From the IMG/VR virus record IMGVR_UViG_2534681655_000008: 25,735 nt of DNA. One strand, given 5' to 3'. The notes beneath the pieces are model-generated. The model was not told where the DNA came from, did not search any database, and saw nothing but the letters and a program-made list of their open reading frames with translations. Shown here piece by piece: positions 3,030 through 11,415 of this stretch. How positions within the stretch are numbered: the stretch's first letter is position 1; each line of letters begins with the position of its first letter. Source of the DNA: a virus. Its lineage: Duplodnaviria; Heunggongvirae; Uroviricota; Caudoviricetes. The translations under genes and the position numbers were made by a program.

Positions 3030-3566
3030 GCATCACTGGAAAGTGGAAAAACAACCTGAGTGGTACGTGAAAGCTATCAGAAAAACTATCGCGGCATTGC
3101 CAGGTGGTTACGCTGAAGCTGCTGACTGGCTGGATGTAACAGAGAACGCATTATTTAACCGGCCGATGGCGATCAGTTTTTTCCGTTGGGATGGGCAATG
3201 GTTTTACAGCGTGCGGCTGGTACTCACCACATTGCGGATGCTGTCGCACAGTCTGCTGGTGGGGTGTTTGTATCACTTCCTGAAATTGAGGAAGTAGAGA
3301 ACGCCGATATAAACCAGCGCCTGCTGGAAGTCATCGAACAGATCGGGAGTTACTCAAAGCAGATTCGTTCGGCAATCGAAGACGGGGTAGTGGAGCCACA
3401 TGAGCAGACAGCAATTAATGATGAGTTGTATCTGTCGATTTCGAAGCTCCAGGAACATGCGGCACTGGTCTACAAAATTTTCTGCGTTCCAGAAAAGAGT
3501 GACGCCCGCGAGTGTGCAGCTCCGGGCGTCGTGGCGTTTTGTGTCTGTGGAGAAACTAACGCATGA
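3022..3566 (+). pseudogene. Early gene downstream of cro with an apparent -1 frameshift at a T6 tract (3177-3182); function unknown
   Basis: Strong AGGAGGT Shine-Dalgarno before GTG 3022; 5' part protein-like to about 3180 then degenerates, while the other frame opens at 3159 and runs protein-like to a stop overlapping the next start (ATGA at 3563). Confidence 0.45.
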
Positions 3567-3891
3567 ACAGTTTAACGGCAAATAACCGTTGGTCGCAACA
3601 GCTGGTGGTCCGCGTGGCTGAACACCTGTTGTTACGGCATGAATGCAGATTACCAAATCACCTGGCTGTAAGTAACCACAGAGAACTTTACCTGACTGTG
3701 GGGGGCGAGTTGTGCAGGAACTTAACCGCTGGTTTCGTGACGGAAGAGGACTTTATGTTCATGTTATTCGTTGGGAGCCAGAAACACAGCGCGTTATCTA
3801 TCTTCGCAAAGACTACCCGCATGAGTGCTTTAGTCCTTTGTGGAAATTCAGGCGTGATTTTGTTGAGTGTGAAGGACCACCAGCACATTGA
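3563..3891 (+). pseudogene. Hypothetical early protein; start-coupled frame (3563 onward) and a better-looking frame (GTG 3712 to stop 3891) joinable at a G6 tract (3700-3705)
   Basis: ATG 3563 overlaps the upstream stop; the 3712-3891 frame encodes ...LYVHVIRWEPETQRVIYLRKDYPHECFSPLWKF..., more protein-like than the overlapping long-ORF frame. Confidence 0.3.
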
Positions 3892-4168
3892 TTCTGCCAT
3901 TCCGGGACGTTACACTGTTCAGGCACCTTATAAAGCGGGTGCCGGGCGTGGAAACCCGGAATTCACCAAAGCGCACAACCGCGCTCTTGCGGTTTTTTTG
4001 TGTCATGAGCAGCATTACGCCCAAATTATGGTGGGGCGTGCAGGGCCAACTTCGGTTGGGCCGGGTTCTTTGGTGACCGGTATTTCCACCCCTGTACGTC
4101 TCACCACCAATAAGGTCGTGGAAAGCCTTGGTGGTGAGTTATTTAAAATCACCAAAGAGGCTGCCATC

Positions 4169-4714
4169 ATGGCTACGATCCCAACCCTCACTCAACCTGA
4201 AATTGCCATCGTTGATGGTCAGGCTGTTACTTCATCCCTGGCTGTTGCCAACTTCTTCTCCAAACGTCATGACGATGTACTGAAAAAGATCCGCACGCTT
4301 GAATGCTCCGCATCATTCACTGCCCGCAATTTTTCGGTGAGTGATTACACCGATTGCACAGGCCGCAAACTACCTTGCTATCAAATAACCCGCGACGGCT
4401 TTGCGTTTCTTGCTATGGGTTTCACGGGTAAACGTGCTGCCCAGTTCAAAGAGGCATACATCAATGCCTTTAACCAGATGGAGAAACAGCTTTCAAGGCC
4501 CGCTGTACCGAGCGACGTTGCACATAACGCCAGCGTTCTCTGTTCCTACATTTCATCAATTCATCAGGTCTGGCTGCAGCAGCTTTATCCTATGTTGGCA
4601 AAAGCCGAATCTCCGCTGGCTGTTAGCTTATATGACTATATTAATGATGCTTCGGCGCTGGCCTGCCTCATAAATTTGTCGCTGAACCCTTCAGAGGTAA
4701 GGGGGCGCAAATGA
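4169..4714 (+). CDS. Phage regulatory protein Rha (antirepressor-like)
   Basis: ATG 4169 with AAGAGG Shine-Dalgarno; N-terminus MATIPTLTQPEIAIVDGQAVTSSLAVANFFSKRHDDVLKKIRTL...ITRDGFAFLAMGFTGKRAAQFKEAYINAFNQME is typical of the Rha family; the ORF track fuses it to 600 nt of dubious upstream frame. Confidence 0.7.
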   Translation: MATIPTLTQPEIAIVDGQAVTSSLAVANFFSKRHDDVLKKIRTLECSASFTARNFSVSDYTDCTGRKLPCYQITRDGFAFLAMGFTGKRAAQFKEAYINAFNQMEKQLSRPAVPSDVAHNASVLCSYISSIHQVWLQQLYPMLAKAESPLAVSLYDYINDASALACLINLSLNPSEVRGRK

Positions 4715-9417: not shown

Positions 9418-9434
9418 TTTTGTGGAGAAAGTTG

Positions 9435-9800
9435 ATGCGTGATATTCAAATGGTTCTTGAACGTTGGGGGGCATGGGTGGCAAATAATCACGAGGATGTC
9501 ACCTGGTCGTCTATTGCTGCAGGATTTAAAGGACTAATCCCTTCAAAAGTAAAATCCCGCCCGCAATGTTGTGACGATGACGCGATGATCATTTGTGGGT
9601 GCATGGCTCGCCTGAAAAAGAACAACAGCGATTTGCACGATTTATTAGTGGATTATTATGTAGGTGGTATGACGTTTATGGCGCTTGCCCGTAAACATGG
9701 GCGTTCTGATTGCTGGGTTGGGCGTTTATTGCAAAAGGCTGAAGGTGTAGTTGATGGCATGTTAATGATGTTAGAAATTGAGCTAGAGATGGATCGTTAG
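9435..9800 (+). CDS. Q: Late-gene antiterminator Q (phage 82 / 21-type)
   Basis: [35 protein letters not shown]...[19 protein letters not shown] matches recalled 82-type Q proteins; GGAG Shine-Dalgarno before ATG 9435. Confidence 0.8.
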
Positions 9801-9883: not shown

Positions 9884-10330
9884 TTAAGGTTTTAATTCAT
9901 CAAGACGTTGTTGGATAGTGTTTTTGCTTGCGTTGTCTGTTATAGCCATTTGTTGTACTTGCCCCATTGCCATTTGAGTTTCCATCCACATATCGGCCCA
10001 CACTTTTGTATCGTTATTAACTTGAGCGATAGTAAATCTGACTTTTGATACCGGGGTTGTTGAATAGGCATTTCCGATTAACATTTGTCCAAAAACAGCA
10101 GAGCCGCCTTCCAGTTCTTTACCACATATAACACTGCTGTTATCCGCGTTGTAAATTATCAACCCTCTACTATTGCAGTAATTCACAAGGGCATCTTTGA
10201 CTTTATCTTTTGTCGTATTTTGATAAACCCCCTCAGGTTTTCCTGATTGAGTTTTCTTTATCAATGGTACGGAAGAAGTACAACCTGAAATGATAGTTGC
10301 GCTAAGTAATAGTACAGTCATTTTATTCAT
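9884..10330 (-). CDS. Lipoprotein of unknown function (148 aa), AT-rich moron on the opposite strand
   Basis: Signal peptide MNKMTVLLLSATIISGC with lipobox-like ISGC; visibly AT-rich relative to flanking phage genes; own promoter-like and Shine-Dalgarno-like sequences upstream. Confidence 0.65.
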   Translation of the reverse strand: MNKMTVLLLSATIISGCTSSVPLIKKTQSGKPEGVYQNTTKDKVKDALVNYCNSRGLIIYNADNSSVICGKELEGGSAVFGQMLIGNAYSTTPVSKVRFTIAQVNNDTKVWADMWMETQMAMGQVQQMAITDNASKNTIQQRLDELKP

Positions 10331-10460
10331 GTTTCTTATCCATTGTTAAGGGTATACCCACACAATTATTTTTATTGGAGATGAATAATCAACCGTTTAC
10401 AATCGTAAAAAATCAAATATGCTGTTAAGAGTGGTTACTTCGCCACACAACTTAAACCCG

Positions 10461-10479
10461 CCGCTGAGCGGTTTTTTTT
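10461..10479 (+). terminator. Weak terminator-like hairpin CCGC-TGA-GCGG followed by T8
   Basis: Short stem and T-run read from sequence; upstream of the tRNA promoter. Confidence 0.35.
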
Positions 10480-10560
10480 GTACCTGTAAACTTGGTGCAG
10501 TACAGTAAACACGCTGGTGGACAAGTGAAAAACAGCATTTAATCAGGCCTTCTGAAGATA

Positions 10561-10589
10561 TTGCAGTATTAATTCTGTAACGTTATTAT
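10561..10589 (+). promoter_or_regulatory. Sigma70-like promoter for the tRNA cluster (candidate late promoter): -35 TTGCAG (10561-10566), 17-bp spacer, -10 TATTAT (10584-10589), GC-rich discriminator
   Basis: Hexamers and spacing read from sequence; GCGCGC discriminator immediately before tRNA +1 is typical of stable-RNA promoters. Confidence 0.45.
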
Positions 10590-10598
10590 TCTGCGCGC

Positions 10599-10674
10599 GG
10601 CCCTTTAGCTCAGTGGTGAGAGCGAGCGACTCATAATCGCCAGGTCGCTGGTTCAAATCCAGCAAGGGCCACCA
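10599..10674 (+). tRNA. tRNA with CAU anticodon, tRNA-Ile2 (lysidine type)-like
   Basis: Full cloverleaf folded by hand (7-bp acceptor, D stem GCTC/GAGC, anticodon stem, T stem GCTGG/CCAGC, encoded CCA); near-identical to recalled E. coli ileX. Confidence 0.8.
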
Positions 10675-10675
10675 A

Positions 10676-10752
10676 CTGCCACTAGCTCATCAGGAAAGAG
10701 CGTCAACCCTTTAAGTTGAGAGTGCGAGGTTCGAGTCCCCGGTGGCGGTCCA
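10676..10752 (+). tRNA. Atypical tRNA-like gene, anticodon loop CCUUUAA (nominal anticodon UUU)
   Basis: Cloverleaf folds (acceptor CTGCCAC/GTGGCGG with one G-U, D stem GCTC/GAGC, anticodon stem TCAAC/GTTGA, T loop TTCGAGT, CCA) but C at position 33, C1-G72 and one T-stem mismatch are unusual. Confidence 0.5.
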
Positions 10753-10754
10753 GT

Positions 10755-10830
<76 letters not shown>

Positions 10831-10833
10831 TGT

Positions 10834-10908
<75 letters not shown>

Positions 10909-10913
10909 GTTAG

Positions 10914-11092
10914 AGTCTTTCAGTCTGCGATGATGGGAAATCCCGGAGTGACTGAAAGACGTTTAAGTTATGAATGATCGCTTTTTTTGCAAAATTGCTG
11001 TGCAGAAATACTAACCTTCGGGCAGGCGATCATTCATAAGCACTCTGCTTTTATTCCGATTAACTGTGGGTGGTTTGTTGGATAGAGTGCTT
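10914..11092 (+). other. Highly structured non-coding segment downstream of the tRNAs (three nested inverted repeats); candidate small RNA or processing element
   Basis: Perfect inverted repeats 10915-10925/10950-10960 (11 bp), 10968-10981/11026-11039 (14 bp), 11038-11046/11084-11092 (9 bp); no plausible ORF. Confidence 0.5.
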
Positions 11093-11114
11093 CCCTTACT
11101 GTATATATCGTTTC

Positions 11115-11140
11115 GCCCGCTTTTGCGGGTTTTTCTTTTC
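11115..11140 (+). terminator. Rho-independent terminator (GCCCGC-TTTT-GCGGGT followed by TTTTCTTTTC) upstream of the lysis genes
   Basis: GC stem plus T-rich tail read from sequence. Confidence 0.6.
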
Positions 11141-11199
11141 AAATCCCTTTCATTTCTCAGTGTAAAACTACGCCATCCGTTATTTGCGGAGGTGAGGCT

Positions 11200-11415
11200 A
11201 TGAAATCCATGGACAAAATTTCAACGGGCATTGCCTACGGCACCTCCGCAGGCAGTGCTGGCTACTGGTTTTTACAGTGGCTTGATCAGGTCAGTCCGTC
11301 ACAGTGGGCTGCGATTGGTGTACTGGGGAGTCTGGTGCTGGGCTTCCTGACTTATCTGACAAATCTGTACTTCAAAATAAGAGAAGATAAGCGTAAGGCT
11401 GCACGGGGAGAGTAA
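11200..11415 (+). CDS. Pinholin / antiholin, phage 21 S21-type, dual start motif MKSM
   Basis: [71 protein letters not shown] closely matches recalled S21 (two TMDs, Met1/Met4 dual start). Confidence 0.85.

Follow-up and report, generated by a model that had tools for sequence, protein, structure and literature searches.

A prophage tRNA gene labelled tRNA-Lys descends from the argN-slot tRNA-Arg lineage and is probably a dispensable relic

What is a tRNA gene that carries the anticodon of tRNA-Lys but lacks the near-universal uridine at position 33 of its anticodon loop, and is it still of use to the phage that encodes it? The question is raised by a 25,735-nucleotide (nt) stretch of viral DNA (Caudoviricetes; IMG/VR record IMGVR_UViG_2534681655_000008), which we refer to in its entirety as the window. 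At window positions 10676–10752 on the plus strand lies the second gene of a four-tRNA array, here called the odd tRNA. An original prediction, made from the letters of the window, had noticed its unusual loop and suggested that it might be a degenerate pseudo-tRNA, a diverged gene of the tRNA-Arg(UCU) type or a tRNA with unusual decoding. The odd tRNA turns out to be already annotated in databases; its lineage is now clear, and ordinary gene decay is the most likely outcome. We propose, with a probability of roughly 0.58, that the label tRNA-Lys given by annotation pipelines covers a pseudo-tRNA or dispensable relic. Two features define the problem:

10676..10752, plus strand: the odd tRNA, an argN-family gene derived from tRNA-Arg(UCU), identified by ARAGORN, Rfam, cloverleaf pairing and homology to argN and to a tRNA-Arg(UCU) sister gene in locus L083
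10708..10714, plus strand: its anticodon loop CCUUUAA, with C32 at 10708, C33 at 10709, U34–U36 at 10710–10712 and A37/A38 at 10713–10714, from the sequence, the Rfam register and ARAGORN

The sequence of 10676–10752 (plus strand) is CUGCCACUAGCUCAUCAGGAAAGAGCGUCAACCCUUUAAGUUGAGAGUGCGAGGUUCGAGUCCCCGGUGGCGGUCCA. ARAGORN calls it as tRNA-Lys(ttt) with exactly these boundaries and with the anticodon at gene position 35. The Rfam tRNA family RF00005 matches 10676–10749 at 40.4 bits, above the gathering score of 29 (E = 1.8e-5 over the whole window and 6.3e-7 over a 901-nt region), in the register UCAAC-CCUUUAA-GUUGA, a 5-bp stem enclosing a 7-nt loop. Explicit pairing gives a cloverleaf with a 7-bp acceptor stem and D, anticodon and T arms, in which U2.G71 and A51.C63 are the only pairs that are not Watson-Crick; C1-G72, U73 and an encoded CCA complete it. 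The conserved U8, A14, G18G19, G53-U54-U55-C56, A58 and purine 37 are all kept in the window copy, and other haplotypes lose U8 or D-stem bases. What departs from a canonical tRNA is the C at 10709, where U33 would make the U-turn. The structural account in the original prediction therefore survives intact: a 77-nt cloverleaf with encoded CCA, a CCUUUAA loop with C33 and a nominal UUU anticodon, C1-G72, a U-G pair in the acceptor stem and an A-C mismatch in the T stem. The Rfam score is low beside those of the array neighbours (72.5, 73.8 and 64.9 bits), each of which also contains one non-Watson-Crick pair.

Another loop register, and with it a different anticodon, can be ruled out because ARAGORN, the Rfam alignment and the PGAP boundaries agree on CCUUUAA. 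The prediction would have been overturned by a high-scoring standard tRNA whose loop lay in another register; every caller uses the CCUUUAA loop. The identical sequence in strain ST95-32 is labelled tRNA-Lys by RefSeq/PGAP, with the same boundaries, and the cluster of Escherichia phage PhiR47_1 (PV340566.1), 100% identical, likewise carries the label tRNA-Lys; the record of this phage gives E. coli ECOR13 as its host. PGAP relies on tRNAscan-SE. Among 322 unique ARAGORN tRNAs from all fetched loci, position 33 is T in 305, C in 16 and A in 1, and 15 of the 16 C33 tRNAs are variants of the odd tRNA; its C33 is a true outlier. The single-sequence minimum free energy fold is not a cloverleaf and is no better than shuffles (z = -0.8). 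Such folds are usual for tRNA genes, so this result is uninformative either way.

Where, then, does the gene come from? The window array aligns to the ileZ-argN-argO cluster of Shiga toxin (Stx)-converting and other lambdoid phages, with the odd tRNA in the argN position, between the antiterminator gene Q and the holin gene. In Stx phages, argN (anticodon UCG) occupies the same slot directly after ileZ, behind a 1-nt spacer, with Q on one side and lysis or stx genes on the other. Of its 77 positions, 63 are identical in the odd tRNA, and both genes have C1-G72, U73, A51.C63, an encoded CCA and a D arm of the Arg type that includes A20. The two differ in the loop, which is CUUCGAA in argN (U33C, C35U and G36U lead to CCUUUAA), and in the anticodon stem, where pairs 30-40 and 27-43 are G-C and U.G in argN but A-U and U-A in the odd tRNA. 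The clusters also diverge downstream, since argO follows argN in Stx phages whereas copies of host thrU and glyT follow in the window.

The closest relative that we found is the tRNA-Arg(UCU) of L083, which also stands after ileZ, with a Thr-like sequence downstream. It is identical to the odd tRNA at 67 of 77 positions and shares the acceptor stem CCGCCAC/GUGGCGG, but has U33 and C35 (loop CUUCUAA), G30-C40 and an intact T-stem pair G51-C63. Relative to this sister, the loop is converted to CCUUUAA by two transitions, U33C and C35U, and G51 is replaced by A; relative to the Arg forms, pair 30-40 has passed from G-C to A-U, a double compensatory change. The Rfam scores are 56.7 bits for the L083 gene, 43.0 for Stx argN and 40.4 for the odd tRNA. 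E. coli tRNA-Lys(UUU), by comparison, shares the UUU anticodon, the U36-A37-A38 context and the label given by PGAP and ARAGORN, but only 46 positions are identical to lysT (whose sequence was verified), and these are mostly universal ones. E. coli tRNA-Lys has A73, G1-C72 and U33, whereas the odd tRNA has U73, C1-G72 and C33, and its anticodon stem is without UAAUCA.

These comparisons place the odd tRNA as a derived allele of a phage tRNA-Arg gene. It follows ileZ directly and is homologous to argN along the whole gene, including C1-G72, U73 and the Arg-type D arm with A20, yet it lacks the C35 of an Arg anticodon (UCG or UCU) and has U35 instead. To judge by its sequence, it is a member of the argN/phage tRNA-Arg family by descent and not by anticodon, and belongs to tRNA-Lys only by anticodon. 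The D-arm pattern UAGCUCAUCRGGANAGAGC agrees: 114 of 120 listed bacterial loci that match it have anticodon loops of the tRNA-Arg(CCU/UCU) type. These matches are ordinary tRNA-Arg genes of unrelated bacteria and not family members; the search also brought up two relatives of the C1-G72 Arg(UCU) kind, one from Serratia and the other from a metagenome-assembled genome of Burkholderiales. No intermediate with the A30-U40 stem but U33, which would have put the loop and stem changes in order, was found in IMG/VR or in JGI metagenomes; the 15 matches there were coding DNA or tRNAs without relation to the family. Of the earlier options, descent from a tRNA-Arg(UCU)-type gene is thus the one that the slot, the L083 relative with its shared acceptor stem and the D-arm matches bear out. 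The C1-G72 pair and the T-stem A-C mismatch are indeed present, but they do not serve as signs of degeneracy: together with U73 they are already found in Stx argN and are therefore inherited family traits, not new damage.

Population data bear on whether the descendant is still in use. We define the clade as the carriers of the CCUUUAA loop and the Thr/Gly-context clade as those members with tRNA-Thr and tRNA-Gly downstream; the neutral comparison is with adjacent non-coding spacers filtered for homology. Flanks of 150 nt were rejected as a neutral yardstick, as they are mosaic and their alignment grew to 6789 columns. The samples are related, partly redundant isolate prophages gathered with two ascertainment anchors, each of which fixes part of a gene, and all diversity figures are to be read as approximate.

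The clade is present in 771 of 5426 complete E. coli genomes (about 14%), at 828 places. Among 60 evenly sampled E. coli records, 29 are annotated as tRNA-Lys and 31 have no tRNA annotation. Sixteen of the 31 unannotated copies align over 74 nt to 75 positions of the query, as a 1-nt deletion would produce, and a further 13 bear a signature attributed to a lineage with C4U, U8C and C11U, an assignment made from alignment span and identity, with the sequences themselves not read. A haplotype with a D-stem deletion is found in PPompW-type prophages, and neither this haplotype nor the U8C haplotype gives an Rfam tRNA match even at E <= 1. Similar variety is seen when the slot is approached from its neighbour. 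In the 218 ileZ-anchored IMG/VR prophage loci listed, the argN slot holds a C33/UUU tRNA in 105, Arg(UCG) in 71, Arg(UCU) in 2 and no callable tRNA in 40, among which are copies with deletions in the anticodon arm and others that are heavily scrambled. Of the 218 listed copies of ileZ, 201 are identical; the adjacent argN slot comprises 70 haplotypes. The UCG-type argN copies at these loci often have T-stem or acceptor-stem mismatches.

For the Thr/Gly-context clade, among the matches listed, nucleotide diversity per site (pi) is 0.0175 in the odd tRNA, 0.0119 in Gly, 0.0080 in Thr and 0.0016 in ileZ, and damaging changes occur in 19.6%, 15.2%, 8.7% and 1.1% of copies, respectively; two homologous non-coding spacers downstream have pi values of 0.0109 and 0.0225. 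The odd tRNA is therefore about as diverse as the adjacent spacers and about 10-fold more diverse than ileZ, which means that it evolves near the non-coding rate and that strong protection is seen for ileZ only. A near-neutral rate and a spread of structure-breaking alleles, the two marks expected of a pseudo-tRNA, are both found, albeit as approximate estimates from a related sample. A stronger statement, that damage in slot 2 greatly exceeds that in its neighbours, had to be softened given the values for Gly and Thr; ileZ alone stands apart, and it appears to be the sole strongly selected tRNA of the classic ileZ-argN-argO cluster.

Two further loci show what may befall genes at such positions. 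In Yersinia phage YeP1 (L005, MK733259.1), a tRNA gene at 1002–1079, downstream of Q, has the same acceptor-stem sequence as the odd tRNA; its anticodon arm is scrambled, with A33 and the nominal anticodon UUG, and it is annotated as tRNA-Pseudo-TTG. If this gene belongs to the argN family, its anticodon arm would have decayed independently in a different genus. L083 (IMGVR_UViG_2568526681_000004, 2637–2950) presents the reciprocal pattern, with a canonical tRNA-Arg(UCU) in slot 2 and, in slot 3, a degenerate Thr-like sequence that is not called as a tRNA.

The expected decoding properties point in the same direction. In E. coli, arginine identity depends on A20, the main determinant for arginyl-tRNA synthetase, and strongly on C35, with U73 among the bacterial arginine determinants, and lysine identity depends on the UUU triplet and A73, any other base at 73 lowering lysine acceptance (PMC9976931). 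C33 is described as an anti-determinant for TsaD-TsaB-TsaE, the bacterial enzyme that makes N6-threonylcarbamoyladenosine at position 37 (t6A37) (PMC9654439). The odd tRNA keeps A20 and U36 and has lost C35; it has the lysine anticodon, but U73 rather than A73, and does not resemble bacterial or phage tRNA-Lys, as its 46 positions in common with lysT illustrate. Work from the Agris laboratory reportedly found weak binding of an unmodified UUU loop to AAA-programmed ribosomes when t6A37 or 5-methylaminomethyl-2-thiouridine at position 34 (mnm5s2U34) is missing. Because C35 is lost, A73 is lacking and C33 is reported to block t6A37, decoding is doubtful, and by these published rules the odd tRNA is probably crippled or inert as a decoder.

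Nor would the phage seem to need it. Per 1000 codons, the phage uses 35 AAA, 16 AAG, 5.6 AGA and 4.3 AGG. Since AAA and AAG are common and are served by lysT-type host genes (median 6 copies per genome), there is no codon need for the odd tRNA; the remark in the original prediction that a UUU anticodon falls outside the rare-codon pattern was well founded. The phage does use AGA and AGG, yet a tRNA-Arg is no longer present in the window array. The third option of the original prediction, unusual decoding, is neither favoured nor refuted by the evidence here; a degenerate pseudo-tRNA is the best-supported functional reading, given the spacer-like diversity, the lesions in about half of the E. 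coli copies and the loss of identity and modification determinants. In the literature searched, we found no relevant paper on ileZ, argN and argO or on the C33 variant.

The array and its surroundings indicate how such a gene might be expressed and retained:

9420..9800, plus strand: late antiterminator Q gene, upstream of the array (Pfam Phage_antitermQ, E = 2.1e-51)
10460..10480, plus strand: terminator-like hairpin (10460–10472) with its T run, between Q and the tRNAs, from a consensus scan only
10599..10674, plus strand: ileZ-type tRNA-Ile2 (CAU), first in the array (ARAGORN Met/Ile2-type CAU; Rfam 72.5 bits; PGAP 'tRNA-Ile')
10755..10830, plus strand: tRNA-Thr(UGU), an exact copy of host thrU (ARAGORN, Rfam; 100% identity to the chromosomal thrU locus)
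10834..10908, plus strand: tRNA-Gly(UCC), an exact copy of host glyT (ARAGORN, Rfam; two-piece 100% match to the thrU-tyrU-glyT locus)
11200..11415, plus strand: holin gene, the first lysis gene downstream of the array (Pfam Phage_holin_2_1, E = 1.4e-35)

The order of genes is RusA, KilA-N, DUF968, Q, the terminator-like hairpin, four tRNAs, holin, DUF1327, lysozyme and Rz, and L001, a genome whose array is identical, is annotated with this order too. This gene content identifies the context as the late region of a lambdoid prophage, and the holin gene places the array in the late operon. The position of the 10460–10480 hairpin fits that of a tR'-type terminator, which Q-modified polymerase would read through. 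Within the array the spacers are 1, 2 and 3 nt. Between Thr and Gly, 3 nt stand in for about 209 nt of the host locus, namely tyrU and its spacer. The earlier identification of the other three tRNAs as CAU Ile2-like, UGU Thr and UCC Gly is correct, but the rare-codon logic attached to them does not carry over to Thr and Gly, which are exact copies of host thrU and glyT and not phage-specific. No additional RNA families, and no minus-strand open reading frame (ORF) of at least 70 amino acids (aa), were found over 10331–11199.

We propose the following course of events. Relative to the L083 sister, U33C and C35U turned the anticodon of an argN-slot tRNA-Arg into UUU and removed the U-turn uridine. 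Because the array lies between Q and holin, behind a terminator-like hairpin, transcription from a Q-dependent late promoter probably still covers the odd tRNA along with ileZ, Thr and Gly. RNase P and 3' trimming probably still release it as well, as its acceptor stem, its T arm and the CCA end are undamaged. At the population level, selection on it is weak or absent, and copies are decaying; it probably persists mainly through its location between genes that are kept.

Several observations weigh against regarding the gene as a relic. An undamaged structure is kept by the most frequent haplotype, which accounts for 62 of the 178 copies called by ARAGORN and, in the clade sample, for 59 of 92 (among the matches listed), and CUUUAA at positions 33–38 is invariant in the clade, position 32 being variable. 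The compensatory change at 30-40 implies that the stem was once under selection, although it may predate the loop changes. Thr (8.7%) and Gly (15.2%) are damaged in the same prophages, and the signal may thus partly reflect general prophage decay; the diversity figures are in any case approximate, since the samples are redundant and related and were reached through two ascertainment anchors. C33 is, moreover, tolerated without substantial impairment in yeast tRNA-Leu(GAG) (PMC13492127), which resembles the odd tRNA in combining C33 with an otherwise normal cloverleaf. For the yeast tRNA, function has been demonstrated experimentally; in the odd tRNA, C33 stands in an ANN-reading context, for which a block of t6A37 in bacteria is reported.

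Could the odd tRNA nevertheless be a working, if weak, elongator? By an anticodon switch, lysyl-tRNA synthetase would charge it through UUU, with a slight gain in late decoding of AAA and AAG. We consider this unlikely, if the most credible of the alternatives. In its favour, there is a full cloverleaf above the Rfam threshold, with U8, A14, G18G19, the T loop and CCA intact, all three anticodon bases are lysine determinants, and transplanted UUU suffices for lysine identity in a human system (PMC9976931); the yeast precedent for C33 and the frequency of the intact haplotype also speak for it. Against these stand U73, which lowers lysine acceptance, C33 with its reported effect on bacterial t6A37, the lack of a codon need, the spacer-like diversity and the further lesions in about half of the E. 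coli copies. Another alternative is a function indifferent to the anticodon arm. The acceptor/T-arm minihelix could provide sites for RNase P and 3'-end processing that free ileZ and Thr in a tightly packed polycistron with spacers of 1–3 nt. Consistent with this, the 3' half of the gene (T arm and 3' acceptor strand) is the best conserved part in the clade, lesions falling in the 5' acceptor strand and in the D and anticodon arms, and degenerate E. coli copies, like the Yersinia phage gene, retain the acceptor stem while the anticodon arm decays. We nonetheless hold a processing element to be rather doubtful. One sampling scan demanded an exact 3' end, which inflates the apparent conservation, RNase P needs no folded tRNA upstream in order to cut 5' of Thr, and ileZ is intact even beside copies so degenerate that the T loop is destroyed. 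Arginylation through A20, with arginine inserted at lysine codons as a form of programmed mistranslation, is very improbable: A20 and U36 are retained and U73 is among the bacterial arginine determinants (PMC9976931), but the strong determinant C35 is lost, no benefit is apparent and the same evidence of decay applies.

An anti-defence role is the most novel alternative. The odd tRNA could act as a tRNA-Lys(UUU) surrogate that escapes PrrC or the AriB nuclease of PARIS, or as an uncleavable decoy, and could form a replenishment cassette with Thr(UGU) and Gly(UCC). At the level of sequence compatibility, the AriB motif UAAUCA is absent, positions 36–41 being UAAGUU, and base 33 is changed in a tRNA of the class that PrrC targets, tRNA-Lys(UUU). 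PrrC cuts 5' of position 34, next to this base. Thr(UGU) and Gly(UCC), the next two genes after the odd tRNA, head the list of tRNAs that P2 OLD, a system excluding lambda, depletes (bioRxiv 10.64898/2026.07.10.737580). A host-sequence tRNA under a strong phage promoter can also rescue a phage from retron-Eco7. Thr(UGU) is in addition a prime PARIS target; a replenishment role for the captured Thr/Gly pair is offered as an idea only. Resistant phage tRNA-Lys genes (T5 against PARIS; SP15 and others against PrrC170) offer a parallel, in that they are phage-borne, have UUU and differ in the anticodon arm near cleavage or recognition sites. They come, however, from virulent phages and their rescue has been demonstrated experimentally, whereas the odd tRNA, known here from its sequence, is Arg-derived, belongs to a temperate phage, has C33 and U73 and is decaying in the population. 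That decay argues against an important role, and the support is circumstantial. Thr and Gly are identical to the host genes and hence cleavable, a surrogate must be charged and must decode, which is doubtful with U73 and C33, and the argN slot decays in other ways in other phages. In its fullest form, the proposal would have a lambdoid tRNA-Arg recruited by C35U as a nuclease-refractory tRNA-Lys(UUU) surrogate (C33, G39-U40-U41) in a late-operon anti-tRNase cassette with Thr(UGU) and Gly(UCC). We regard it as improbable in this as in its simpler form, and a pseudo-tRNA or dispensable relic remains our preferred reading.

Some other features of the window deserve mention in their own right. Just past tRNA-Gly, 10915–10960 and 10968–11039 hold two perfect inverted repeats without an Rfam match, one with 11-nt arms 24 nt apart and the other with 14-nt arms 44 nt apart; a terminator-like hairpin at 11115–11130 lies after them and before the holin gene. 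Between Q and the array, in a place often taken up by accessory cargo genes in lambdoid phages, 9884–10330 on the minus strand contains a 148-aa ORF without a Pfam match. Further upstream, isrK (67 bits) and C4 antisense RNA (83.6 bits) stand side by side at 3923–4111. Both lie within an ORF at 3563–4714, the translation of which matches Pfam Ash and Rha, and the Ash match (residues 117–213, approximately nt 3911–4201) overlaps the two RNA genes.

In practical terms, a gene routinely labelled 'tRNA-Lys' in about 14% of complete E. coli genomes belongs to an Arg lineage and has a defective anticodon loop. Counts of tRNA genes, codon-adaptation analyses and surveys of phage tRNAs that take this label at face value will be slightly wrong. 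If the anti-defence reading were true, tRNA-based evasion of PrrC, PARIS and OLD would occur in temperate lambdoid phages as well as in virulent T5-like ones, and the odd tRNA would be a natural example of tRNA identity switching. For the family itself, the argN slot emerges as a decay-prone position beside a very strongly conserved ileZ, and it shows which tRNA of the Stx-phage cluster is under selection.

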